DNA of 30,351 nucleotides, from contig JBLWVX010000018.1 in the NCBI GenBank assembly GCA_048268245.1, forward strand, positions 1 to 30,351, written 5' to 3'. Numbering within the stretch: the stretch's first letter is position 1; the number at the start of each line of letters is the position of its first letter. Shown here in pieces: positions 1 through 16,410 of this stretch. A program made the position numbers and the translations under genes. The notes under the pieces were generated by a model that was not told where the DNA came from, did no database searches, and was given only the letters and a program-made list of their open reading frames with translations. This stretch comes from Arcobacteraceae bacterium. Its GTDB lineage: Bacteria; Campylobacterota; Campylobacteria; Campylobacterales; Arcobacteraceae.

Positions 1-81
1 GTCTATCAGAAATATAAGAATCAGCTTCGAATGAGTTCAACTCCCCTCTCCAAAGTGTAAACATAATTTCTGTTGAGTCTC
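1..81 (+). mobile_element. Possible right end of an insertion sequence (IS256-like terminus), partial
   Basis: Bases 1-60 are 23/60 GC, higher than the flanks, and read open in frame 1 (VYQKYKNQLRMSSTPLSKV*). They end in GTGTAAACATAATTTCTGTTGAGTCTC (55-81), which from memory resembles IS256-type terminal inverted repeats. Only one end is visible, so this cannot be confirmed. Confidence 0.35.
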
Positions 82-483
82 TTTTGCTTTTTTCTCTTCA
101 AGCTTTTTATACTCTAAAATAGCTTTTTGTTTTATAGTCTCGTCAACTGATTTTGATTCATATTCTCTTAAAATATTTGTTAAAACCATTGTATAAGCTA
201 TTGTATTTAGTTTTAATGACTCTTCATTTCTCATAAGTTTATCTAAGTCTATTGCATATACTGCTTCTTGAAAAGTATAATATAACCTTTGTGAGACATC
301 CTCTAATCTATATGTATATCCCAAAATTACTAAAAAATTTTTCTCATATTCCTCAAGAGAAAATAGCTCTTCAAGTTCTCTCTCAAAGCCTATTATATCA
401 TCATTACATTTTCCATATATTTCATCTGCCTCTAAAAGTTTATTTTTAAAAGCATGAAAATAATTAGATATTTTACTAGTCAT
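37..483 (-). CDS. Hypothetical protein; the C-terminal ~15 aa may derive from the putative IS end
   Basis: 148-aa ORF with host-like composition. The tail TQQKLCLHFGEGS is encoded by the GC-richer 37-81 segment. Confidence 0.7.
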   Translation of the reverse strand: MTSKISNYFHAFKNKLLEADEIYGKCNDDIIGFERELEELFSLEEYEKNFLVILGYTYRLEDVSQRLYYTFQEAVYAIDLDKLMRNEESLKLNTIAYTMVLTNILREYESKSVDETIKQKAILEYKKLEEKKAKETQQKLCLHFGEGS

Positions 484-2078: not shown

Positions 2079-4517
2079 TTAAAAGCTTTCCCACTCATCA
2101 TCTGATGAAGTATCATTGAAAGTTTTAGGTTCATATTTTGCTTGAGTTTGTGGTCTTGAAACTGTGTTTGATTGAGTGTTTGAACTAACACTATCATTTG
2201 TACTATTTATTGCTTTGATATCTTTTGAAATATCAATATTATCTTTTCCAGCAAACTCTTTTTCATTAGCTTTTGAAACAATATCTTTTGCTAATTCTGC
2301 TGTATTTAATGCAATATTTTTAGTCTCACCTGCAACTGTTGCATTTTTTTGAGTTTGTTGGTCTAATGAGTTAATAGCATCATTAATTTGTACAATTCCT
2401 GCTTCTTGTTCTTTTGAAGCACTTGAAACATCAGAAATAAGCTCAATTGTTTTATCAATATTTGAGTTTAATCCCTCGTAACCTTTAATCATCTCAGCTG
2501 CAATATTTTTACCTTCATTAGCTTTAATATTTGCACTCTCAACTAAATCTTTAATCTCTTTTGCTGCTTCTGCACTTCTTGAAGCTAGGTTTCTTACTTC
2601 TTGAGCAACAACTGCGAAACCTTTACCTGCTTCTCCAGCTGTTGCAGCTTCTACTGCTGCATTTAGTGATAATATATTTGTTTGAAAAGCAATTTGGTCA
2701 ATTACTGTAATTGCTTCATTAATAGAACTTACTTGATCATTAATTTCATCCATAGCTAATGTAGTTCTTGAAGCTAACTCTTCACCTTTATTTGCTGATT
2801 GTGTAACTTCATTTGCTAAAACAGACATTTCTGAAATTTTTTGTGTCGTAGAAGATACATTTCCAGTAATCTCTTCAAGTGCTGCCGCTGTTTCTTCAAG
2901 TGAAGCTGCTGCTTCATTTGAAGCCTGATTTAATGTATCAACATTTGATAATAAGTGTTCAGATGAATTATCTACAATAAGACCATTTTTCTTATTGTCA
3001 ATTAACATTTCAGTAATAGAAACACCTAAAGAGTTAACTCCATTTGCAAGTCTTTCTAAATGTTCTTTTATCCCATTTGTATCAACTTTACTTAAATAGT
3101 TGTAGTTTGAGAACTTTTCTAAAACATCTAAAATATTATCAATGTTATTCTCTAAATTATCACCCATTTTATTTAAAACATCTCTTAGTTCATTTAATGC
3201 AGGATTATTAACTGATGTTGTTATTCTTTGAGTTAAATCACCTTTTTCAAACTCATTTAAAACAGTAATTGTTTCATCAATAATAGCTCTATCTTCTTCT
3301 ATACCTTTTTTAGCTTTTTTGATATTTTCATTAACAACTTGTGCCATTAAACCAATCTCATCAAAACTATCTGTTTCAAGCTCTTTTACATCAGAAGACT
3401 TTCTATTTACATAATCAAAGAAACCTTCTAAACCATCTTGAAATTTAACTAATCTTTTTACAACAATATTATTAATTATAATGACAGCACCTGCGATTAC
3501 AAAAATAAGTAAAACTAAAGCAATAATCAAAATTAAGTTTCTAATAGCATTTGGTGTTTTTAAAACTTCTGATTCATCTATTTCAGATAAAATCGCCCAT
3601 TTAATATCAGAACCAATATTTAAAGGCGCATATGCTGATAATACTGGATTTCCATTATAGTCATCAATAATTTCAGTATTTGATTGACCATTTAATGCAT
3701 TTTGACTTCCTTTAGTTTTTACTTGCGTATTATTTGAGAAAGAAGTAATTAAACTATACTCTTTAGGATTAAGATAACTATCACTTCTCATAAGCTTATC
3801 AGAACCTACTAAATAGTCTTCTTGTGATTTTCCATAACCTTCTCTAAACTGCATAATTTTATTAATTGATTTATCACTTATTTGGAAAACTAAAACTGCT
3901 TCAACATTACCATCTTTAAAAATAGGTGTTCCTAAAAACATTGCTGGAGCATTGTTACTTGGTGCATAAGGTTTCATATCTTGGAATGTTGGTTCATTTG
4001 AGTTAAGTGTATTTGCAAAAACCATTCCTAAACCACTATCTTTTAATGAGCCATACTTTAAGTTTGCTCCATAATCAGACTCTTTTGCAGCTGTATATAT
4101 TACATGACCTGTTTGAGCATTTATTAAGAAAATATCATAATACCCATACTCTTGCATATAGCTTTGGAAATACTCTTCATATTTGTTTGTTATGTTTTTT
4201 ACAAGTTGATTTTTTACATCATATGTAGATTTTTCATTTAATTCAACCATATCAAAAGTTTTTTCAAGAGAATTGTAAAGTTCTAAAATATCTTTACTTT
4301 TAGATAAAACCTTAATATCTCCAACTCTCTCATTAAAAAAGTTTTTTATTTGATTTGCTTTTGAATCTCTAGCAGATGTTAGCATAGCGTAGTTCTGAGC
4401 TAAAATACCCTCTTTTGCTTTGCTTACTGAAAAACCAGCTATTATAATAGCAAGTAAACTTAATGACACTACAATAAGCCCTATTACTTTAGCTTTTATT
4501 GTCATTTTTTTTAACAT
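2079..4517 (-). CDS. Methyl-accepting chemotaxis protein with a periplasmic Cache-type sensor domain
   Basis: Two TM segments flank a periplasmic region containing YGYYDIFLI and [19 protein letters not shown]-like DEIGLMA follows. The canonical signalling hairpin [37 protein letters not shown] is present. Confidence 0.95.
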
Positions 4518-4788: not shown

Positions 4789-5253
4789 ATGAATATTGAA
4801 AACTATTTTGAAAAAAATAAAATCACACAAAATTTAGCAGATTATGAGATTTTTTATCAAGTGTCACTTGGAAAGCTATGTTCTCTTACAAATAATACAG
4901 ATATAAACTATGATATTGAACTTCAATATGCTCTTGGTTCTATATATGAATTACTAAAAGATTTAAACACAATTGATAATATTGATGAAATATTTCAAGA
5001 TGAGTTAAAGAAACAAGCAGCAATGGATGCTCTGCAAAAATTTGCAAATGATAACTTAGATGATATAAAAACAGAAAAAATAGAAATAGAACATATGGTT
5101 CATGAAATAAACGATAATAGATTTTTCAATGAAACTATGATTAAAGTTTATGAAGAACACAAAGAAGAGCAAAAAAAGAAATGGCAAGAGATAATCACAG
5201 GTGACTTATCACAAGCAATTATTTTATCTTTAAAACAATTAGAAGAGAAGTAA
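4789..5253 (+). CDS. Hypothetical acidic protein
   Basis: 154-aa ORF with RBS GGA upstream and a terminator downstream. Confidence 0.75.
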   Translation: MNIENYFEKNKITQNLADYEIFYQVSLGKLCSLTNNTDINYDIELQYALGSIYELLKDLNTIDNIDEIFQDELKKQAAMDALQKFANDNLDDIKTEKIEIEHMVHEINDNRFFNETMIKVYEEHKEEQKKKWQEIITGDLSQAIILSLKQLEEK

Positions 5254-5266
5254 AACTTCTCTTTTT
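5243..5266. terminator. Bidirectional intrinsic terminator
   Basis: AAGAGAAGT-AAA-ACTTCTCTT followed by TTT, between convergent genes. Confidence 0.65.
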
Positions 5267-6222
5267 CAAAAAGAGTGGTTAAACTTCTCTTTATTTTTAA
5301 CTACCTCAGCAGATGATACTATATTCATAATCATTTCATCTTTACTATCTGAGAATTTTTCTATAATAATATCACAAACTTCTAATAGCTCTTTTTCATT
5401 GCTTAATTGACTTAAAATAATAGACTTATTATATAAAGCTAGTGCTACTTGCTTTAGAAGTACACCTTTTTCATTTTCATATTTTTCTATAACTTTATCA
5501 TAAGTTTCAATTGCTTTTCCAATATAGTTTTGTTCTCTATATCTACCAGCTTTATTTACATAAGCTTTTGCTACAAGTTCTTTGATATTCTTTTCTTCAT
5601 ATGTATTAAAATTATCAATTAAAAAATCATAAGCTTTAATAGCCTCTTCATTTTCATCTTCTTTTGCATACAATAAAGCTACATTAAATGAAGCATATGC
5701 AAGATTATCAATGACTTCTGGGTTTAGAGAGTCTTTAAAGTTTGCAATTAATTCTTTATATACTTCAATAGAGTCTTTTCTTTGCTTAAGTTGACTTATA
5801 CAAACTGCTTTATTTAAATAAGTCTTTACTAAAACAATTTCAAGTTGAGAAGAAGTGTCTTCAATAAACTTCTCTAAAAGTCTATCATAGCACTCTAACT
5901 CTTTTTGATAATCTTTTAATTTAGCATAGATTAAAGCCTTGTTGTAAAAACTATATGCCAAATATCTAAAAATTGTTTCATTTTTCGTATCTGCAAATTT
6001 TTCAATTATTTCATCATATGTTTCAATTACATCTTGATCTTCATTTAGATTTGTAAGTGCTGAGGCTTTTCCCATGAGTGTATAAAATACATCAAGGTCA
6101 TTGTCTTGAGCTACAGTTAGTAGCTCTGGGACTAAGAATAAAGCATCTTCAAACTCTTTATTTTGCATCTTTTGATTAAATTGGCTGTATAAATATTCAA
6201 AGTTTTCTTGATTCAATTTCAT
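5266..6222 (-). CDS. Soluble TPR-like repeat protein (diverged ~43-aa repeats)
   Basis: Recurrent pattern NKA..(L)..L....E.IE.YD..IEKF. The spacing from YDEIIEKF to YDRLLEKF is 43 aa, with about 6 units. RBS AAGGA. Confidence 0.85.
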   Translation of the reverse strand: MKLNQENFEYLYSQFNQKMQNKEFEDALFLVPELLTVAQDNDLDVFYTLMGKASALTNLNEDQDVIETYDEIIEKFADTKNETIFRYLAYSFYNKALIYAKLKDYQKELECYDRLLEKFIEDTSSQLEIVLVKTYLNKAVCISQLKQRKDSIEVYKELIANFKDSLNPEVIDNLAYASFNVALLYAKEDENEEAIKAYDFLIDNFNTYEEKNIKELVAKAYVNKAGRYREQNYIGKAIETYDKVIEKYENEKGVLLKQVALALYNKSIILSQLSNEKELLEVCDIIIEKFSDSKDEMIMNIVSSAEVVKNKEKFNHSF

Positions 6223-6275
6223 CCTTTTAATATTTGATAATAATTATTTTTAACAAAAGTATACTTGATTTATTA

Positions 6276-6755
6276 TTAACTTTTTGCAAAATCTTCTAAA
6301 GTTTTACCTTCTAGTCTATATCCTATCCATTCATCTTGGCTTTTTGCACCAAGACTTTCATAAAACTCTCTTGATGGAGTATTCCAATCTAAACATGACC
6401 ATTCAAATCTTCCACACTTTTCATCAAGTGCTTTTTTAGCAAGATGTTTTAACATCTTCTTACCTGCACCATTTCCTCTTTTAGACTCAGTAACATATAA
6501 ATCTTCTAAATAAATACCTTTTTTACCAAGCCAAGTTGAGTAATTGTAAAAATATACAGCATAACCAATAGCAACGCCATCTTCTTCACAAATCAAAGCT
6601 TTTACAGTAGAATCATTACCAAAAATTGCTTCTCTTGTTTGTTCTACATTTGTTTTTACTTCATGTTCTGCTTTTTCATAAACTGCTAATTCAATGATAA
6701 AATCTAATATTGTTTGAGCATCATTAGATACTGCATCTCTTATAACTAAAGACAT
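6276..6755 (-). CDS. GNAT family N-acetyltransferase (SSAT/diamine acetyltransferase-like)
   Basis: Motifs ELAVYEK, YSTWLGKKGIYLEDLYV, acetyl-CoA loop KRGNGAG, and LDWNTPSREFYESLGA. Confidence 0.92.
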   Translation of the reverse strand: MSLVIRDAVSNDAQTILDFIIELAVYEKAEHEVKTNVEQTREAIFGNDSTVKALICEEDGVAIGYAVYFYNYSTWLGKKGIYLEDLYVTESKRGNGAGKKMLKHLAKKALDEKCGRFEWSCLDWNTPSREFYESLGAKSQDEWIGYRLEGKTLEDFAKS

Positions 6756-6763
6756 TTTCTTCC

Positions 6764-7402
6764 TTAATTTAATTTTTCTATTTTTTCTTCAAAGTTTTCA
6801 TAATAACTGATAAATAAGTCATTATTCAACTCATCTTTAAACTCATTTATATAAGCTATGATATTCTCTTTTGTAGTAAACTCTTTTGCAAACTCATCTT
6901 TTAATTTGATATAAATAACAGTTCCTGAACCCTCATCATTTATACAAGGAGCTAAAGTATAAGTAGATAAATCTTTTGTGTTAAATTTATAAGCTGTTTC
7001 ATCTCCTACTTTTTTTGAAATTATATTCACACTTTTTGCGATTAAAAACAGAAAATACAATCCTACTTCTTTTAAAGATATTTCTTTATTTTCTATAGAG
7101 CTTTCTATCTTTTTTGAAGCTTGCTCTTCAACAAAAAAGTTTAACTCTTCTTTATTCATACCAATACCATTATCAACAATAGTAATAGAGTTATCAGATG
7201 GTTCAAAATAGACTTCCATCATACCTTCCCACTCTTTTAACTCTTTTTCAAACTCTGAATTATCTTTTAATTTTTTTAGTTTATTTACTGCTTCATTTGC
7301 ATTTGATAATAAAGCCTTTAAAAAAAGCCCTTTTTTTAGTTCATTGTTTTGAAATACTTGTTTATACTTATTTATATTAGTTAAATTTTTAAAATTATTC
7401 AT
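6764..7402 (-). CDS. Stand-alone HtpG/Hsp90 N-terminal (GHKL) domain paralog, predicted ATPase-dead
   Basis: Colinear with the N-domain of the htpG at 11992-13902: LLSNA, ITIVDNGIGMN.EEL, V.IISKK.G.E.AYK, L.PC...SGTVIYIKLKDE. Intact ORF with RBS AAGGA. Confidence 0.85.
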   Translation of the reverse strand: MNNFKNLTNINKYKQVFQNNELKKGLFLKALLSNANEAVNKLKKLKDNSEFEKELKEWEGMMEVYFEPSDNSITIVDNGIGMNKEELNFFVEEQASKKIESSIENKEISLKEVGLYFLFLIAKSVNIISKKVGDETAYKFNTKDLSTYTLAPCINDEGSGTVIYIKLKDEFAKEFTTKENIIAYINEFKDELNNDLFISYYENFEEKIEKLN

Positions 7403-7481
7403 ATTAAGTTCCTTTCATTTTGAATGATGAAACTTTATCTAAAGATTCTGAAAATAAACTAATTTATACAATATAAAATTA

Positions 7482-8297
7482 TTATAATTCATTTCTTAAA
7501 TAATTTTCTATCATAGGACGATAATCCTTTCTACATACTAAGTGTGTATCTAAACTTAATTCAACTTTTGTAAGCTTTAGTTTATCTGTGTAGCCAAACT
7601 TATCTATAATACTTTTTGAAAGTAGTGTTACTCCAAAACCAGCTTTTGTAAGTCCAAGCATCAACTCATAGTTTTGTAAAGCCATTGTTTTATAATCTAT
7701 ATCACTGTTTTGTTTCACATACTCTTGTAAGCAAATACAATAAGCACAAGTATCTCTATAAACTAGAAGATTATCTTTAGCTTCTTTATCTTTGGGTTCT
7801 ATAAAATATATATCATCTTTGAAGGTATTTAAAGTCTCTAAATCTTTATGATTTGGGTTTCCATTTATAAAAGCTATATCTATTTGATACTCTAAAAGTT
7901 GTTCTATTAAGTTTAGGCTACTATCTATGTTAAACTCTATTTTCATATCTTGAAAGTCTTTGTTTAATTGCTCGATTATAGGGATAAGTCTTATGGTTGC
8001 ATTTGATTGGGTTGTTCCCATCTTTAGAACTTCTTGATGATTGATATTTCTCATTTGAGAAGTGGCTTCTTCTACTTTTTTTACAATATCAACAGCAAAA
8101 GGGTATAATTTTTCGCCCTCATTTGTAAGTACAACACCTCGGTTTGTTCTATGAAATAGATTATAACCTAAAGTTTTTTCAAGCTGTTTGATTCTTGAAG
8201 TTATGTTTGACTGAGTATAGCCCAACTTTTTAGCTGCATTTGATATGCTTTTTTCATTTTTAACAGTGATAAATGCTTTTAATAAATTTGAGTCCAT
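7482..8297 (-). CDS. LysR family transcriptional regulator
   Basis: N-terminal HTH SISNAAKKLGYTQSNITSRIKQLEKTLGYNLFHRTNRGVVLTNEG, followed by a substrate-binding domain. Confidence 0.95.
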   Translation of the reverse strand: MDSNLLKAFITVKNEKSISNAAKKLGYTQSNITSRIKQLEKTLGYNLFHRTNRGVVLTNEGEKLYPFAVDIVKKVEEATSQMRNINHQEVLKMGTTQSNATIRLIPIIEQLNKDFQDMKIEFNIDSSLNLIEQLLEYQIDIAFINGNPNHKDLETLNTFKDDIYFIEPKDKEAKDNLLVYRDTCAYCICLQEYVKQNSDIDYKTMALQNYELMLGLTKAGFGVTLLSKSIIDKFGYTDKLKLTKVELSLDTHLVCRKDYRPMIENYLRNEL

Positions 8298-8322
8298 AAA
8301 ACTTCCTATAATCTTTTGTGTT

Positions 8323-9066
8323 TTAAATAGCTATAGTTTGAACTACTAAACCAACAGCTATGATAAACAGTAATACTTTTAAAATCTTAGCATAGAACTT
8401 TGCATCGATTTTTTTCTTTATTTTTATACCAAAATATAAACCAATAGCAACTAAAAACATACTAGTAAATGATATTTCAACAGCTGTACTACTAAATGCT
8501 CCAAAATAAACAAAAGTTGCTATCTGCCCTACTTTTGTAAATAAAAAACATAAATTTGATAGCTGAATCGTATCTTTTTTAGAGTACTTAAGCTCTAAAG
8601 TATACATGATAGTCAAAGGAGCTACAACATTTGTAAGACCTGATACAACACCACCAATCAAACCTAATCCATAAGTAGAAGACTTAGGATAAGAAGAGAT
8701 AAAAGTAGCTCTAACTTTTATAGCTGATTGAATCAAATAAGCAAAGATGATAAAAGCTAATAGCAACTTAAAATACTCAGAATTAAAATAAACAAGTATA
8801 TAAGTTCCAACACAAGAGCCAAGCACCATAAGAAGTATAATAAACCAAAACTTTTTCAAAGCCTCAAAAAACTTCCCTTCACTTAAAATACTAACCAAAT
8901 TCACAATCATAGTAGGAACAATAATATAAGTAATAGTAGTTTGAATATCAGTAAAAAGAGCAACAACAGGCGTAGAGATAAGCCCAAATCCAAAACCAAT
9001 ACTTCCATGAATAAAAGAAGAAATCAGTATAACAAAAGTAAAAACAATAAGAAATTCAGTTTCCAT
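8323..9066 (-). CDS. Sulfite exporter TauE/SafE (TSUP) family membrane protein
   Basis: About 8 hydrophobic segments with motifs HGSIGFGFGLISTP and GLIGGVVSGLT. Start moved from 9108 to the ATG at 9066, which has an AAAGG RBS. Confidence 0.85.
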   Translation of the reverse strand: METEFLIVFTFVILISSFIHGSIGFGFGLISTPVVALFTDIQTTITYIIVPTMIVNLVSILSEGKFFEALKKFWFIILLMVLGSCVGTYILVYFNSEYFKLLLAFIIFAYLIQSAIKVRATFISSYPKSSTYGLGLIGGVVSGLTNVVAPLTIMYTLELKYSKKDTIQLSNLCFLFTKVGQIATFVYFGAFSSTAVEISFTSMFLVAIGLYFGIKIKKKIDAKFYAKILKVLLFIIAVGLVVQTIAI

Positions 9067-9162
9067 ATCATTACCTTTAATATTACATATAACTATGTGT
9101 AATACCAAATAGTATTACTAATCATTATATCAGAAGTTTATTAAAGGGGTTTGAATTTGTTT

Positions 9163-9492
9163 TTATTTAGTAAGTATTTTTTTGATAGTATTTTCAAGTT
9201 TTGGTAGATGAGTTCTTATAATATCTTCAATAAGCATTTTATTTACACCTTCATAATCATGTGCAATAAAGTTTCGTACATCATAAGTACCTTTTATTGG
9301 TAAACTTGAAGCAAAATCTTCATTTCTTAGTTTATGTAAGGTTTCACCTATTTGAAGCAAACACATTAATGTGGCATCATATCCCATAGTATCTGTAAGA
9401 AGTTCTTCAATACTTTTAAATCTTTGACGAAAGGAATTAATATCTTCTATTTTTTCTAAAATAAAATGTAGCTTTTCATAAGAACTAGACAT
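9163..9492 (-). CDS. hepT: HEPN (DUF86/HepT-like) RNase toxin
   Basis: RX4HXY motif RNFIAHDY and LLQIGE; overlaps the upstream MNT gene by 8 nt. Confidence 0.88.
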   Translation of the reverse strand: MSSSYEKLHFILEKIEDINSFRQRFKSIEELLTDTMGYDATLMCLLQIGETLHKLRNEDFASSLPIKGTYDVRNFIAHDYEGVNKMLIEDIIRTHLPKLENTIKKILTK

Positions 9493-9793
9493 ATAAAATA
9501 TCTTTTAAAGCATATTTTTTAAATGTACGGCTATTGTTGTCAATAGTAGCAATATCAACTTTTAGATTGAGTGACTTTTGTAAATCTTCTTTGATTTGTG
9601 AAAGTTTTGAAAAGGCTTCAAAACCTGAGTATTTTTCAACAAAAGTAGGTTCTATATCATAAAGTAAATCTATATCACTATCTTTTGTCTGTGTATTTTT
9701 AGCATAAGAGCCAAATACTCCTACAATTTTAAATCCATCTTTTAAAAGTTTTTGTTTTTCTATTTTGATTTTATCTAATAACTCTTTTTCCAT
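9485..9793 (-). CDS. mntA: Minimal nucleotidyltransferase (MNT/MntA-like) antitoxin
   Basis: GSX10DXD motif FGSYAKNTQTKDSDIDL plus KVDI; 102 aa, directly upstream of the HEPN gene. Confidence 0.88.
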   Translation of the reverse strand: MEKELLDKIKIEKQKLLKDGFKIVGVFGSYAKNTQTKDSDIDLLYDIEPTFVEKYSGFEAFSKLSQIKEDLQKSLNLKVDIATIDNNSRTFKKYALKDILYV

Positions 9794-9851: not shown

Positions 9852-11783
9852 TTATTTCTTATTATGATTTTCAAAAATATCTATATATCTTAATAATCTT
9901 TCTTTTAGTTCTTTATCTTCAAAAGAGTTAGCCCAATCTTTTAGTTCAGAAAAAGACCAGTTTTTAAGAGATGTACCTTTAAACTCTTCTTTCCACTCTT
10001 CTATTCTATTATCAATATTAGAATCTTTTGCTTTTTCTAAAAGAGTTAACATTTTGTATTGAATAAGCTCACTTTTATCATCTTTTACAAGCTTAGAATA
10101 TAAATTTAAATCTTTTTGTGAATTTAATTTATTTAATATTAAATTTGTTTCTATTTTATTTATTAAAGCTCTCGCAATTTGTTCTAAAATACTATTATCT
10201 TTTGAATATTCAAATCTTTTTACTACTTCATCATACACTTCAATCGATTCTTCACTTCTGTTTAAGTGTCCAAGTGTTATACCCTTATTATGTAAAGCAC
10301 TTGAAACTTTTTCTAATATACTATTATTTTTTGAATCTTCAAATCTTTTTACTACTTTATCATATACTTCTATCGCTTCTTCACTTCTGTTTAAGTGTCC
10401 CAGTGTTACACCCTTATTATGTAAAGCACTTGCAACTTTTTCTAATATACTATTATCTTTTGAATCTTCAAATCTTTTTACTACTTCATCATATACTTCT
10501 ATCGATTCTTCGATTCTGTTTAAGTGTCCAAGTCTTACACCTTTATTATGTAAAGCACTTGCAACATTCTTTAAAATGCTATTATCTTTTGAATCTTCAA
10601 ATCTTTTTACTACTTCATCATATACTTCTATCTCTTCTTTACTTTTGTTTAATTGTCCAAGTCTTACCCCCTTGTTAAATAAAGCTTTTACAACATTCTT
10701 TAAAATACTATTATCTTTTGAATCTTCAAATCTTTTTACTACTTCATCATATACTTCTATCGCTTCTTCACTTCTGTTTAATTGTCCAAGTGTTACACCC
10801 TTACTAACTAAAGCACTTGAAACTTTCTCTAATATATTATTATCTTTTGAATCTTCAAGTCTTTTTACTACTTCATCATATACTTCTATTGCCTTTTCAT
10901 CTTTATCAAGTTTTAAAAACTCTGAACCCTTATTAACTAAAGCTTTTGCAACTTCTTCCAAGATATTATTATCTTTTGAATCTTCAAATCTTTTTACTAT
11001 TTCATCATATACTTCTATTGCTTCTTCACTTCTGTTTAATTGTCCTAAAAGTAATGCATGAGTAAATAATGCTTGTATTTTATTTTTATCATTTTCAGCT
11101 AATTGAATTGCATCTTTAATGTTTGTAATTGCTTTTTCTATATTATTATTTTTATAATTTTCTATAACTATTTTAAATATATCTTTATAATCTTTTTCTT
11201 TCCTTTTTAAATCACTTCTATCATTTAAGCCATCAATAAATTCATCAATTTTGTCACTTGTTTCATTTTTTATATTTGATAGTTCTTTCTCTGCTTTTTC
11301 TTCTAATTCTTTTTTTGACTCTTCAACTATATTATTAAAAACTTTCTGAGCTTTTTCATCAATCCAACTTTTAACTTCTTCTTCCGCTTTAAATTTAGCA
11401 ATCCTTTCAAATTTAAAAGCAAAGAAAATAACTACAGCTGTAATCAATACTCCAAATAAACCTATTGAAGCAGATACTATTACAGACAATTTATCTACAC
11501 TAGAATTAATATCCTCAATTCTATTATTCTGATAAGTTATCTCTTTTTGCAAATCTTCTTTATTTACATACTCGTTTAACTCTTTTTCTAACTCTTTTAT
11601 CTCATTTTCTTTTTGAATTATCTGTCCCATGATAAGAGTGACTTTTTCATCGTTAATCTTTTGAGCATACTCTTGTGAAGTTTTGAGTTCAAATAGTTTT
11701 TGATTTATTTCTTCATTTGAAGCGAAAAGAGAAGATATAAATATAAAAGTTAAAATTATAGATTTAAAAAAAGAGTTGTTCAT
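9852..11783 (-). CDS. Membrane-anchored TPR-like repeat protein (signal peptide, coiled coil, one TM helix, 7 x 43-aa repeats)
   Basis: Signal peptide MNNSFFKSIILTFIFISSLFA; the ATG at 11783 has a GGGA RBS (the ORF track starts at GTG 11810). TM segment LSVIVSASIGLFGVLITAVVIFFAF, then a tandem repeat array. Confidence 0.88.
   Translation of the reverse strand: MNNSFFKSIILTFIFISSLFASNEEINQKLFELKTSQEYAQKINDEKVTLIMGQIIQKENEIKELEKELNEYVNKEDLQKEITYQNNRIEDINSSVDKLSVIVSASIGLFGVLITAVVIFFAFKFERIAKFKAEEEVKSWIDEKAQKVFNNIVEESKKELEEKAEKELSNIKNETSDKIDEFIDGLNDRSDLKRKEKDYKDIFKIVIENYKNNNIEKAITNIKDAIQLAENDKNKIQALFTHALLLGQLNRSEEAIEVYDEIVKRFEDSKDNNILEEVAKALVNKGSEFLKLDKDEKAIEVYDEVVKRLEDSKDNNILEKVSSALVSKGVTLGQLNRSEEAIEVYDEVVKRFEDSKDNSILKNVVKALFNKGVRLGQLNKSKEEIEVYDEVVKRFEDSKDNSILKNVASALHNKGVRLGHLNRIEESIEVYDEVVKRFEDSKDNSILEKVASALHNKGVTLGHLNRSEEAIEVYDKVVKRFEDSKNNSILEKVSSALHNKGITLGHLNRSEESIEVYDEVVKRFEYSKDNSILEQIARALINKIETNLILNKLNSQKDLNLYSKLVKDDKSELIQYKMLTLLEKAKDSNIDNRIEEWKEEFKGTSLKNWSFSELKDWANSFEDKELKERLLRYIDIFENHNKK
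10146..11048 (-). repeat. Intragenic tandem array, 7 x 129 bp
   Basis: The anchor TTATCTTTTGAATCTTCAAATC (with minor variants) recurs at 10195, 10324, 10453, 10582, 10711, 10840 and 10969, an exact 129-bp period. Confidence 0.95.
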
Positions 11784-11855
11784 AAAATTGTCCCATAAAT
11801 TTTTGAACACATTTTATTATTTTGTAGCTATATGTGAGGTTAATGATACTAACTT

Positions 11856-11996
11856 TATACCCAAATAAATAACTAGTTGTATGTAGATTCAAGGCGTAAA
11901 TATTTTTTCTTGATTGAGCCTACATTTAGTAGGTGATTGAAAGAAAAACTATTTGCAACGCTGAAGATGCGTGCAAATAGTTGATTTATTTTTATA
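11856..11996 (+). repeat. ERIC-like palindromic miniature element (141 bp)
   Basis: Bounded by TATA at both ends and begins TATACCCAAATAAAT. Contains CAAGGCG, a central GAGCCTACATTTAGTAGGTGATTG and CAACGC, matching the order of ERIC consensus blocks. Folds into one long bulged hairpin. Confidence 0.7.
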
Positions 11997-13902
11997 GAGC
12001 TTTTGCTGTGATTCTTGATAATCTTTGCGCAAACGCTACTGCGTCTGTGATATCCATACCCTCAGATAATTTTGCTTGGTCTAATAGTACCCATGATACA
12101 TCTTCTACCATTTTATCATCTGCTAAACCGTTTAATTTTGTTACGATTTCGTGGTCTGGGTTGATTTCTAGAATTGGTGCTGATTCTGGCATTTCTTGTC
12201 CCATTGCTCTCATCATTTGAGCCATTTGTGCCATTTGAGCATCACCTGCATCTTTTACTACACAAGATGGTGACTCACTTAGTCTGTTTGTTACTCTTAC
12301 ATCAGAAACTGACTCACCTAAAATATCTTTGATTTTTTTAGTGATGTCTTCAAATTTCTCTTCAACTTCTTTTTTCTCTTCTTCTGATTGCTCTACTTTT
12401 GGAGCTTCACAAGCTGTGATGTCTTTGAATTCCCACTCTTTATATGCACCATACATTGGAGTTACGATTTCATCGATCTCTTTGTCATCTAAGATTAAAA
12501 CTTCGATGTCATTTTTCTTATATGCTTCTAATAATGGAGAGTTTCTTAATACTTTTTCATTTTCACCTACGATAAAGTAGATAGCTTTTTGTTCACTATC
12601 AGCAGCTTCTTTATAAGCTTCTAATGAAGTCATTTTTCCAGCTTCTGTTTTTGTAGATTTAAATCTGATTAGTTCTAATAACTTATCTTTATTTGTGAAG
12701 TCTTGGTAAGCACCCTCTTTAAGTGGTCTATTGTATTGCTCAATAAATTCAGCATATTTTTCTTCATCTTTAGAAAGTTTTTTGATTTCAGATAAAATCT
12801 TTTTAACAGATGATTGTTTGATGTTTGCTAAAATTCTGTTTTCTTGTAAGATTTCTCTTGATACATTTAGTGGTAAATCTTCACTATCGATAATACCTCT
12901 AACAAATCTTAAGTAAGTTGGTAATAACTCTTTTTCATCATCAGTAATAAATACTCTTTTAACATAAAGCTTAACACCTGGTTGATAATCAGCTCTGTAC
13001 ATATCCATAGGTGCAGTTTTTGGGATATAGAAAAGTGTAGTGTACTCATTTACACCCTCAGCTTTTGTATGAATAGTAGCCATTGGGTCTTGTGAATCAT
13101 GAGAGATTGACTTATAGAAGTCGTTGTACTCTTCTTCTTTTACTTTTGATTTTGGTTGAGTCCATAAAGCTGTTGCTTCATTGATTTTTTCATGTCTTTT
13201 TTCAACTGTTTTTTTAGCTTCTTTTCCAGCTTTTTTATCTTCTTCGCTTAACTCTTCTTCTACTTCTTCACTATAGTTTAAGAAAATTGGGTAAGCGATG
13301 TGGTTTGAGTATTTACCAATAATATTTTCAATTCTTGGCTTACTTGCAAACTCTTCGGCTTCTTCATCTTTAAGTTTGATATAAATTACAGTTCCTGAAG
13401 ACTCTTTTGTACAAGGTGATAAATCAAACTCACCAGTACCATCAGAAGACCACTTATAAGCTTGCTCTTCACCTGCTTTTTTAGAGATAACATCTACTTT
13501 TGAAGCTACCATAAATACTGAATAGAATCCAACACCAAACTGTCCAATTAAGTTTGAGTCTTTTTTCGCATCACCTGTTAGGGCTTCAACAAATGATTTA
13601 GTTCCTGATTTTGCAATAGTACCAATAGAAGCAATTAAATCTTCTTCATTCATACCAATACCATTATCAATAATAGTTAAAGACTTATCTTCTTCATCAA
13701 AAGCGATATTAATCTCACCTGACCAATCTGCATATTGTTCTTTTAATTTGTCATCAGTTAATTTTAAATAGTTTAACTTATCAATTGCATCACTTGCATT
13801 TGATACTAATTCTCTTATAAAAATCTCTTTATTTGAGTATAAAGAGTGTGTCATTAAATGTAATAGTTGTCCTACTTCTGTCTGAAATTGATGTTTTGCC
13901 AT
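11992..13902 (-). CDS. htpG: Molecular chaperone HtpG (Hsp90)
   Basis: Motifs HSLYSNKEIFIRELVSNASDA, DNGIGM, GTIAKSGT, IGQFGVGFYS, LYVKRVFI, LRFVRGIIDSEDLPLNVSREILQ and LEINPDH. RBS AGGAG. Confidence 0.99.
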   Translation of the reverse strand: MAKHQFQTEVGQLLHLMTHSLYSNKEIFIRELVSNASDAIDKLNYLKLTDDKLKEQYADWSGEINIAFDEEDKSLTIIDNGIGMNEEDLIASIGTIAKSGTKSFVEALTGDAKKDSNLIGQFGVGFYSVFMVASKVDVISKKAGEEQAYKWSSDGTGEFDLSPCTKESSGTVIYIKLKDEEAEEFASKPRIENIIGKYSNHIAYPIFLNYSEEVEEELSEEDKKAGKEAKKTVEKRHEKINEATALWTQPKSKVKEEEYNDFYKSISHDSQDPMATIHTKAEGVNEYTTLFYIPKTAPMDMYRADYQPGVKLYVKRVFITDDEKELLPTYLRFVRGIIDSEDLPLNVSREILQENRILANIKQSSVKKILSEIKKLSKDEEKYAEFIEQYNRPLKEGAYQDFTNKDKLLELIRFKSTKTEAGKMTSLEAYKEAADSEQKAIYFIVGENEKVLRNSPLLEAYKKNDIEVLILDDKEIDEIVTPMYGAYKEWEFKDITACEAPKVEQSEEEKKEVEEKFEDITKKIKDILGESVSDVRVTNRLSESPSCVVKDAGDAQMAQMAQMMRAMGQEMPESAPILEINPDHEIVTKLNGLADDKMVEDVSWVLLDQAKLSEGMDITDAVAFAQRLSRITAKAL

Positions 13903-13985: not shown

Positions 13986-14012
13986 TTAGCACTTTTATCA
14001 ATCAAGTGCTAA
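13986..14012. promoter_or_regulatory. CIRCE-like HrcA operator upstream of htpG
   Basis: TTAGCACTT-N9-AAGTGCTAA, a perfect inverted repeat with a 9-nt spacer. Canonical CIRCE is TTAGCACTC-N9-GAGTGCTAA. It overlaps a minus-strand extended -10 element TGCTAAAAT (13983-13991). Confidence 0.8.
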
Positions 14013-14532: not shown

Positions 14533-16410
14533 TTGGATAAAAACAAATTTTTAGAAGATTTAAACGAAGTATATGAGTACTTAGATGCTCAAAAAACAAA
14601 TACAAATAAACTAATATCTCACTTAGAAAATAAAGAGTATGAGAAATTAACTATCATTGATGAGTTTGCAAAAAAACTAGACTTAGAAATGAGAGATGAT
14701 TTAAGATTTGCCCTGCTAACTAGACTTGTAAGCCTTAGAGATGACTCACTTGTACAAGTACTTAAAAAGTATGAGAAAAGTGAAGAAGAGATAGTAGAAC
14801 TTCAAGAGAAAGCATACTGCTTTGTAAGAGACTTTTGGCATGAAAAGCATAAGAACACAATCGATTATATAAAAAACAACAATTTACTAACTCCTTTTTA
14901 CCAAGAGATTTTCCAAGGTGTTTATAATGTAGGTCTTAAAATGTCTTCATGGCAGAGTGCATGGACTGCACATATTATAAATGGTATAAACAAAGAGTTA
15001 TTAGCCAAATTTGATGGTGATGAGTCAAAAGTATATGAATACTTAGAAAACAATCACTTATATGATTTAGGTCACAATGATATGATAGCAGATAGATCAT
15101 ACTCAGCACTTGTAAAACAAAAAGAGGATTACAAATCTCAAGCATATATCAAAGCTTTCAAAGAGCAAACAACAGCTGTAGTAGATGAATTAGAAGAGTT
15201 TGAAGAAAGACTTATTGAACTTGAAGATGAAGTATATGGTGAAAAATGGAACTATATTTTATATATCCAAACACTAATCAAAGCTTTTAGTGAAGACAAA
15301 GAGCATAAACTAGTTGAGAAATGGGCAGATGTAGATAGAGCTTGGATGAAAATAAAAGCCCCTATTCAAATAGGTCACCCTTTAGAGTACTATGAAGATC
15401 ACTTTAGAAAAGCAGTTGCTCTTGAATGGGATATAAGACTTTCAAATCCACAGTTTGCACAAAATGACCACAGAGTAAACAAAATCAAATCAGCTTTTGC
15501 AAAAGTATTTAATAGAATTGAGCAAACACAAGAATACAAAAGTATTTATGATTTTTCACTAAAATCACTTGATAAGGTACAACTTTATATAGGAAGACCT
15601 GCTGTATTTTTTGGAGCTGAGTTCAATGGACTATTTTCAGCCCAAGTTGTACCAAATGATGAGATAGTTTCAAAAGAAGAAGGTAAAAAAATCTTTGCAT
15701 TTAGTGATGAAATTCTTCAAAGCAGTCGTGCAAAGCCATTTTTAAAGATTTCAAAAGAGACTTTTGGACAAGAGCTACTTACAGAAGATAGAACTTTCCT
15801 TTTCAATGAAACTTCAAAATGGCACCAAGTTTATGATATCACTACTATTGGACATGAGTTTGGTCATATTTTATGGTGTGATGATGAAACAGAATCAGCT
15901 ATGAATAAAACAGGAAACTTCAAAAACATAGAAGAGTTCAAAGCTACAACAGGTGGATTAGTTTCATTTTTCCTAGATGAAGAAGATGATGAAAAAGAAC
16001 TAGAAAGACAAGTACTAATAGATACAGTAAAAAGAGCCGTAGGACTTATGGGATGGATGGAAGTAGATGAAGTTCAACCTTACTATTGTGAAGGTCTTAT
16101 TCACTTAGATGGACTTTTTGATAGTGGTATTTTAGATTGGGATGAGAAAAACCTAATCGTTGATATGAGTGATGAAAAACATGAAGCACTTAAAAAGTGG
16201 TATGTTCAAACTTACACAGATTTAGCAAAACACTACCTTGATAAAAAAGACGCAACACAGTTCTTAAATCAGTATGCTGTAAAAGAAGAGAAATACTTCA
16301 TGCCAGTAAACAAAAAAATAAACTCATTTGTAAAATACTACTTTAAAAGATACCAAGAAATTGGTCAAGAGTTAGATACAGAAGATAAGAAAGATAACTA
16401 CATAAACTAA
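14533..16410 (+). CDS. ciaB: Invasion antigen CiaB family protein
   Basis: 625 aa with motifs QIGHPLEYYEDHFRKAVALEWDIR, GLFSAQVVPNDE.VS...GKKIFAF, TIGHEFGH and FKNIEEFKATTGGL. TTG start with AAGGA RBS. Confidence 0.92.
   Translation: MDKNKFLEDLNEVYEYLDAQKTNTNKLISHLENKEYEKLTIIDEFAKKLDLEMRDDLRFALLTRLVSLRDDSLVQVLKKYEKSEEEIVELQEKAYCFVRDFWHEKHKNTIDYIKNNNLLTPFYQEIFQGVYNVGLKMSSWQSAWTAHIINGINKELLAKFDGDESKVYEYLENNHLYDLGHNDMIADRSYSALVKQKEDYKSQAYIKAFKEQTTAVVDELEEFEERLIELEDEVYGEKWNYILYIQTLIKAFSEDKEHKLVEKWADVDRAWMKIKAPIQIGHPLEYYEDHFRKAVALEWDIRLSNPQFAQNDHRVNKIKSAFAKVFNRIEQTQEYKSIYDFSLKSLDKVQLYIGRPAVFFGAEFNGLFSAQVVPNDEIVSKEEGKKIFAFSDEILQSSRAKPFLKISKETFGQELLTEDRTFLFNETSKWHQVYDITTIGHEFGHILWCDDETESAMNKTGNFKNIEEFKATTGGLVSFFLDEEDDEKELERQVLIDTVKRAVGLMGWMEVDEVQPYYCEGLIHLDGLFDSGILDWDEKNLIVDMSDEKHEALKKWYVQTYTDLAKHYLDKKDATQFLNQYAVKEEKYFMPVNKKINSFVKYYFKRYQEIGQELDTEDKKDNYIN

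Follow-up and report, generated by a model that had tools for sequence, protein, structure and literature searches.

A natural, conserved lidless Hsp90 N-domain in the Arcobacteraceae

Introduction

The Hsp90 ATPase cycle has so far been dissected with engineered lidless, linker-deleted, and isolated N-domain constructs. Nucleotide handling in this domain depends on the catalytic Glu (E33 in yeast), the Mg-binding Asn, the adenine-binding Asp, the pocket Thr, and the GxxGxG phosphate loop. By convention, the Asn belongs to the N box and the DxGxG motif forms the G1 box. The HtpG N-domains of B. burgdorferi (7U4C) and E. coli (2IOP) represent the intact bacterial domain, while Grp94 N-domains lacking the charged domain (1U0Z, 1U2O) bind ATP and inhibitors. 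Engineered lidless yeast Hsp82 is reported to be ATPase-inactive itself (PMC5018835). A natural family of stand-alone lidless HtpG N-domains is not described in the titles and abstracts found in the literature. In an Hsp90 family survey (PMC1525184), the word “truncated” is absent, and truncated Hsp90 ORFs are reported for Trichomonas (PMC5973626).

Here, we describe a short gene in a 30,351-nucleotide stretch of an Arcobacteraceae genome (the window). It encodes a natural lidless Hsp90 N-domain and is a real, lasting gene conserved in one bacterial family. Its product has a predicted Bergerat fold like that of the HtpG and Hsp90 N-domains, retains the Asn of the N box, DxGxG, and the Thr of the pocket, and descends from htpG. 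Unlike these relatives, it lacks the lid, the GxxGxG box, the charged linker, and both the middle and the C-terminal domain, and in the clade of the window Ala replaces the catalytic Glu. Its gene also differs from htpG in having no CIRCE-like operator. The lid segment is removed both here and in lidless Hsp82, yet the latter is a full-length dimer acting on its partner subunit, whereas the short protein is a free N-domain that has also lost the G2 box. As in the Grp94 constructs, the post-linker strand follows straight on from the N-domain; those, however, are laboratory products with an intact lid, whereas the short protein comes from a natural gene and is lidless. Evolution has made, and under purifying selection long kept, an object very similar to these constructs in one bacterial family, repeatedly discarding the catalytic Glu during that maintenance.

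A stand-alone HtpG N-domain gene

The features of the locus are compiled in Table 1. The reading frame is present on the reverse strand with AAGGA 7 nt 5′ of its ATG, in agreement with an earlier sequence-only reading that had described an intact ORF with a ribosome binding site; orthologues carry AGGAGG or AGGAG at the same site. BLASTP aligns residues 24–200 of the short protein with residues 25–210 of the local HtpG (636 aa) at 70/187 identities (37%, E 9e-37). In Pfam, HATPase_c_3 matches with 30.6 bits (cutoff 25, E 4e-7), HATPase_c stays below its cutoff (19.2 vs 26.4), and PF00183, which comprises the HSP90 middle and C-terminal dimerisation domains, has no match in the short protein, which ends at residue 212. 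The HtpG equivalog model (NCBIfam NF003555) fails, with 80.2 bits against a cutoff of 371. The earlier view of a free-standing Hsp90 N-domain paralogue that ends cleanly at the domain border is borne out. Within the window's own genome, the short gene and htpG are the only matches.

By its HATPase_c_3 match, N box, and G1 box, the short protein belongs to the GHKL/HATPase_c superfamily (Bergerat fold), with the G2 box not found. Its clusters carry the public annotation “ATP-binding protein” and no other name. Look-alikes of similar size and Pfam content occur in the ESM Atlas, where HATPase_c_3-only clusters of 209–247 aa from Bacillota and Pseudomonadota reach feature scores of 0.96–0.97; these are superfamily-level leads, obtained by feature score without alignment.

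Table 1. Coordinates of features in the window
Feature	Position	Strand	Details
Terminator-like hairpin	5243..5263		After the gene for the 318-aa TPR protein
318-aa TPR protein gene	5266..6222	-	Conserved in the htpG neighbourhood
GNAT acetyltransferase gene	6276..6755	-	Pfam Acetyltransf_1 4.4e-18; starts 8 nt after the short-gene stop
Short HtpG-N paralogue gene	6764..7402	-	ATG start, 212 codons + stop (ORF list)
C-terminal strand EEKIEKLN	6767..6790	-	Equivalent to the post-linker strand of full-length Hsp90s (model alignments)
SGT 159–161 with pocket Thr161	6920..6928	-	T161 invariant in 17 aligned members; Thr in 24/24 representatives
Residues 83–113, replacing ATP lid and G2 box	7064..7156	-	Shortened, variable within the family
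DNGIGM 77–82, G1 box with adenine-binding Asp77	7157..7174	-	D77, G79, G81 invariant
Codon 34 (Asn), Mg-binding Asn of the N box	7301..7303	-	Invariant in 17 aligned members; 23/24 representatives
Codon 30 GCT (Ala), Hsp90 catalytic-Glu position	7313..7315	-	Alignments: FLKALLSNA vs FIRELVSNA
AAGGA, RBS-like	7410..7414	-	7 nt before the ATG of the short gene, read from the sequence
LysR regulator and TauE-family membrane protein genes	7482..9108	-	LysR 7482–8297, TauE 8323–9108 (Pfam)
MNT nucleotidyltransferase and HepT/HEPN genes	9163..9793	-	Overlapping; toxin–antitoxin-like module
652-aa membrane-anchored TPR protein gene	9852..11810	-	Directly downstream of htpG
Repeats in the 652-aa TPR protein gene	10160..11045		6.9 tandem copies of a 129-nt (43-aa) unit, 86% identity
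htpG, full length, parent-type paralogue	11992..13902	-	636 aa; Pfam HSP90 9.5e-119; 4.6 kb upstream of the short gene
CIRCE-like inverted repeat	13986..14012	+	TTAGCACTT-N9-AAGTGCTAA; ~85 nt upstream of the htpG start
DUF7897 protein gene	14533..16410	+	625 aa; Pfam 2.5e-247; HEFGH metalloprotease-like motif; divergent from htpG

Predicted fold

The AF2 model, built ligand-free from a family alignment of 17 related sequences, reaches a pLDDT of 91.4 and a pTM of 0.89. The best Foldseek matches are the N-domains of B. burgdorferi HtpG and of Grp94, the latter “lacking the charged domain” (E ~1e-15, TMq 0.73–0.80), and VIA-align gives Z scores of 22–23 with an rmsd of 2.3–2.5 over 194–202 residues against many Hsp90, HtpG, and Grp94 N-domains. 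The best PDB match of the short protein by sequence is likewise 7u4c (E 1e-23). The model thus confidently predicts an Hsp90-type Bergerat-fold N-domain, as the domain assignment of the sequence-only reading implied.

In place of the helix-loop-helix lid of Hsp90, the model has a single helix (residues 84–105), and strands 195–202 and 205–210 form a hairpin. Alignments extend through residue 212 only with chains that include the post-linker strand, namely E. coli HtpG (6..228), Grp94 (75..337), and human Hsp90 (19..291), whereas classical N-domain constructs align to about residue 200–204 only. For Grp94 without the charged domain, model residues 1..212 match chain residues 75..337 with Z 22–22.5 and a Foldseek TMq of 0.80. 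By this alignment, the closing EKLN is the counterpart of the EKIN strand that follows the linker in HtpG, as had been proposed from the letters; MAFFT alone placed EKLN elsewhere. At the opposite end, the first residue of the model falls on the N-terminal strand region when solved Hsp90 N-domains are aligned with it. The N-terminal segment, from which the FQTEV strand had been considered missing, equals that of HtpG in length and is diverged in sequence rather than deleted.

Motifs kept and lost

Alignments with HtpG confirm the exchange of the catalytic Glu for Ala30, the retention of the Mg-binding Asn34, DNGIGM, and SGT, and the absence of the charged linker. N34, D77, G79, G81, and T161 are invariant among 17 aligned family members, and DxGxG recurs in all 24 full-length cluster representatives, with the counts for Asn and Thr given in Table 1. 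The ATP lid (GTIAKSGT … GQFGVGF) is replaced and shortened in all 17 aligned members, with gaps of 9 to 23 columns relative to HtpG; the stretch is 9 residues shorter in the window protein, from which both lid motifs noted earlier are indeed gone. Length and sequence of the replacement vary within the family, several members being shorter still. The GxxGxG signature of the G2 box is not found: GQFGVGF has become KEVGLYF, which leaves a single Gly in the window protein, and the last G2-box Gly is missing in the members P0022, P0023, and P0032.

The position of the catalytic Glu is less uniform. Of the 24 representatives, 10 have Glu there, 10 Ala, 2 Tyr, 1 Asn, and 1 Thr. All 10 Ala representatives fall within the window's clade (87–100% identity), Tyr and Asn occur in three closely related clusters, and Thr marks a further lineage. 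Such changes in several lineages would be anticipated for a protein that can do without hydrolysis. P0032, the most divergent member, has neither Glu nor the Mg-binding Asn. Hence, the hallmark of the whole family is that ATP lid, GxxGxG box, and charged linker are gone. The Glu was given up afterwards, by more than a single lineage, and selection did not relax in the Ala clade. The emphasis that the sequence-only reading had placed on Glu→Ala as the key change does not hold for the family, since 10/24 representatives keep Glu and the loss of lid and G2 box is universal.

Distribution and selection

The family is tiny (188–213 aa). A word-indexed search returned 23 short clusters of 189–213 aa, and when 1.84 billion representatives were searched with a family profile, 4 proteins (212, 199, 129, and 188 aa) reached E ≤ 1e-30, after which the score drops from 164.6 to 101 bits, where ordinary Hsp90s start. 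The lid motifs are kept in all 8 other short hits inspected, which thus look like HtpG fragments. By profile search, the gene occurs in 11/184 Arcobacteraceae species genomes, distributed over genera g1 (4/6, G000 counted), g13 (2/7), g20 (4/25), and g10 (1/44), with 0 in the other 18 genera; a single-sequence search of 151 genomes had found 9 and missed the g10 member. Carriers include Arcobacter sp. YIC-310 and YIC-464, Malaciobacter halophilus, Halarcobacter ebronensis, Aliarcobacter vitoriensis, Halarcobacter sp. MAGs, and one Arcobacteraceae MAG. A second HtpG-N-like hit was found in 0/57 genomes from nine other families of the order.

All 11 genomic copies, from four genera, are open frames of 205–223 aa with zero internal stops. 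We estimated dN/dS by NG86 with bootstrap 95% intervals. For seven close pairs the values are 0.10 (G000–G044; 12 amino-acid-changing and 23 silent-only codon differences), 0.11 (G000–G024), 0.15 (G096–G089), 0.22 (G091–G071), 0.14 (G091–G128), 0.21 (G071–G128), and 0.26 (G044–G024, where just 11 codons differ). The intervals exclude 1 in 6/7 pairs, all six lying below 0.4, with G044–G024 as the exception. Distant pairs give 0.27–0.8, with dS saturated. In most of the same genome pairs, the dN of the short gene is ~2–6 times that of the HtpG N-domain. Purifying selection is similar in the Ala clade (0.10–0.11) and the Glu clades (0.14–0.22), which points to a selected function that does not need the Glu. 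Orthologues are thus present and stop-free, and the earlier preference for selection over decay is upheld.

The gene is nevertheless dispensable, being absent from 173/184 family genomes and cleanly deleted in genome G002. There, the LysR–GNAT spacer (L030 8059–8156) consists of the short-gene upstream region fused to the last ~27 nt of the gene (…EKIEKLN, stop) and is a clean internal deletion scar.

A weak additional hit in genome G037, considered as a decayed family member on account of 2 in-frame TAG codons, was rejected as a eukaryote-type Hsp90. It lies at ~3340–4290 (reverse strand) of L125 (G037:C3) and encodes a eukaryote-type cytosolic protein with a long KKEGEE-rich charged linker. 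This contig is probably contamination of the bacterial assembly, from a donor that reads TAG as sense.

Origin from htpG

A quick ML tree was computed from 18 short proteins and 51 HtpG N-domains. It unites the short proteins in a single clade (SH-aLRT 100), whose stem measures 1.23 changes per site. This clade is nested among Arcobacteraceae HtpGs (SH-aLRT 86–88) in a tree that carries a long-branch warning, and an AU test does not reject Arcobacteraceae HtpG as a clade without the short proteins (p 0.289). The tree thus agrees with an HtpG N-domain ancestry beside the family's own HtpGs; a duplication inside Arcobacteraceae HtpG, as the nesting would have it, is one of the placements compatible with the AU test. 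Judging from these comparisons, the duplication is old, at or within the base of the Arcobacteraceae, and no recent copy.

Derivation from the neighbouring htpG as a recent local copy, as the wording of the sequence-only reading implies, is at odds with the long stem, the spread over four genera, and a nucleotide identity to the own htpG that is not raised: over the whole length the short gene is 56.7% identical to its own htpG and 55–58% to those of other genomes. The reported 29/30-nt match stands as a count and is the best 30-nt window, at DNGIGM, but it is not specific to the neighbouring htpG. In a 42-nt window, the own htpG scores 37/42 and the htpG genes of eight other genomes score 33–37/42. 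The match merely reflects the invariant DNGIGM motif, spelled in preferred AT-rich codons. Recent gene conversion from the neighbouring htpG was likewise considered and discarded, there being no excess identity to the own-genome htpG.

In 9/9 genomes examined, the short gene lies 0.2–5.5 kb downstream of htpG on the same strand, and in G128 it follows directly after a 219-nt gap. This synteny supports a tandem origin. The g10 copy (A. vitoriensis type) lies away from htpG, which is on another contig; it has no internal stop and speaks for independence from htpG.

Expression and regulation

The CIRCE-like repeat upstream of htpG is the sole match in the window at ≤3 mismatches (0.02 expected) and suggests that htpG may be under HrcA control. 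A scan of the window at the same threshold found no such repeat upstream of the short gene, a search for the HAIR (HspR) operator gave 0 matches, and a cross-genus alignment of upstream regions revealed no conserved operator. A promoter scan returned 22 sites vs 20.7 expected.

The GNAT gene, found in the same arrangement with the short gene in G044, G024, and G073, is probably co-transcribed with it. Together with the hairpin behind the TPR gene, this suggests that short gene, GNAT, and TPR form one transcription unit in this genus. In other genera the downstream neighbour differs, which excludes a constant operon partner. On the upstream side, the TauE–LysR pair flanks the short gene in 9/9 genomes examined.

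Four RNA-labelled runs were compared with region 5266–8297. For the true metatranscriptomes X19 and X20, the listed pieces on the short ORF measure only 36–46 nt and cover the DNGIGM and SGTVIYIK motifs. A number of their loose ends run on into ordinary htpG-type sequence, and these two runs yield no evidence that the short gene is transcribed. Contigs from X15 and X16, whose RNA status is guessed and which may be DNA, span the short ORF (e.g. 6357–7174) with nearly every bin covered.

Possible functions

For a protein devoid of lid, phosphate loop, and the catalytic loop of the middle domain, and in this clade of the Glu as well, ATP hydrolysis is very unlikely, and we infer that the short protein very probably has no ATPase activity; the earlier prediction of a catalytically dead domain was sound in this regard. 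The conserved pocket residues, which also have structural roles, suggest that a ligand site may be retained. The absence of both Glu and Mg-binding Asn from P0032 weakens the case for a Mg-nucleotide as ligand of the whole family. Overall, the observation of a lidless N-domain ORF is confirmed, and the interpretation first attached to it is partly supported.

As the best explanation, at a probability of roughly 0.55, we regard the short protein as a selected, non-hydrolysing stand-alone N-domain that serves as an open-pocket binding module or a passive surface. In this reading, a single ancient duplication of part of htpG in the Arcobacteraceae lineage gave rise to a stand-alone domain that kept the core of the Bergerat fold and, in the pocket, the adenine half (Asn34, Asp77-x-Gly-x-Gly, Thr161). 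The lid and the phosphate-binding box were lost, along with the middle and C-terminal domains, sources of the catalytic Arg loop and of dimerisation, and, in the window's sub-clade, the catalytic Glu. The product may offer an open pocket to an adenine-type or other small ligand, or a passive N-domain surface, and would work apart from the ATPase cycle of HtpG and free of the presumed CIRCE heat-shock control of htpG.

Modulation of HtpG in trans, by a free lidless N-domain that docks on the N-domain or the N–M interface and stimulates or blocks the ATPase cycle, appears unlikely. Within yeast heterodimers, lidless Hsp82 is reported to stimulate ATP hydrolysis by the wild-type subunit (PMC5018835), but the C-terminal dimerisation domain that holds such heterodimers is missing from the short protein, and the N-terminal strand and helix 1, which form the N–N contact, have diverged. 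The position behind htpG on the same strand in 9/9 genomes, directly so in G128, would fit a joint function, yet tandem-duplicate origin accounts for this proximity as well, one family member resides on a different contig from htpG, and the CIRCE-like operator is not common to both genes. A decoy or sponge, whose open pocket sequesters Hsp90-pocket inhibitors or whose domain absorbs a phage or competitor protein and so protects HtpG, is quite unlikely. It would agree with conserved pocket residues and dispensable catalysis, with a patchy distribution and repeated loss as in accessory genes, and with the surroundings, namely the variable stretch with the MNT/HEPN pair and the GNAT gene 8 nt downstream. 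However, no PADLOC-DB model of known anti-phage defence matches the short protein or any of three neighbours, signs of a mobile element or defence island are absent beside the short gene, the GNAT, LysR, and TauE genes also occur in G002, which has no short gene, and no inhibitor producer or phage link is known. Taken as one proposal, a natural lidless N-domain acting in trans on HtpG, either as a co-factor that tunes its ATPase or client cycle or as a shield from pocket-directed inhibitors, is decidedly improbable; if true, Hsp90 would have given rise to a co-factor of its own in bacteria. We know of no dedicated HtpG co-chaperone.

The Glu-bearing members could also be weak ATPases or ATP-binding switches, leaving just the Ala clade of the window dead. 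Glu is retained in 10/24 and the Mg-binding Asn in 23/24 representatives, but lid, GxxGxG box, and the catalytic loop of the middle domain are missing throughout the family, and purifying selection acts on the Ala clade just as on the Glu clades (0.10–0.11 vs 0.14–0.22), which renders such a division very improbable. Decay of a functionless remnant of the partial htpG duplication is disfavoured and, in our estimate, extremely improbable: although the gene is lost across most of the family and has left a deletion scar in G002, the 11 copies in four genera have zero internal stops, dN/dS is 0.10–0.26 with intervals excluding 1 in 6/7 close pairs, the domain ends at a conserved boundary, and the fold prediction is of high confidence.

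The family constitutes a natural test case for the capacities of an Hsp90 N-domain in the absence of hydrolysis, such as ligand binding, decoy action, or regulation, and the short protein should be convenient material, being small, predicted to fold well, and easy to express and crystallise. Its narrow taxonomic range and dispensability limit its general importance unless a link to HtpG is shown.

Neighbouring genes

The gene for the 318-aa TPR protein follows directly after htpG in G060 and directly after the short paralogue in genus g13. A TPR protein beside a bacterial Hsp90 may recall, by analogy, the TPR co-chaperones of eukaryotes. The 652-aa TPR protein varies among relatives, with 673 aa in G024, 399 aa in G071, a split gene in G073, and no counterpart in G044. 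Between htpG and the TauE gene, the MNT/HEPN pair lies in a variable stretch and recurs in some relatives only (G024, G073). In a Halarcobacter MAG (L065 5148–7150), htpG reads as two ORFs of 424 and 213 aa, through a frameshift or an assembly error. The DUF7897 gene, finally, lies beside htpG in 8/10 relatives (not in G096 and G089) and in two of the three genera sampled.
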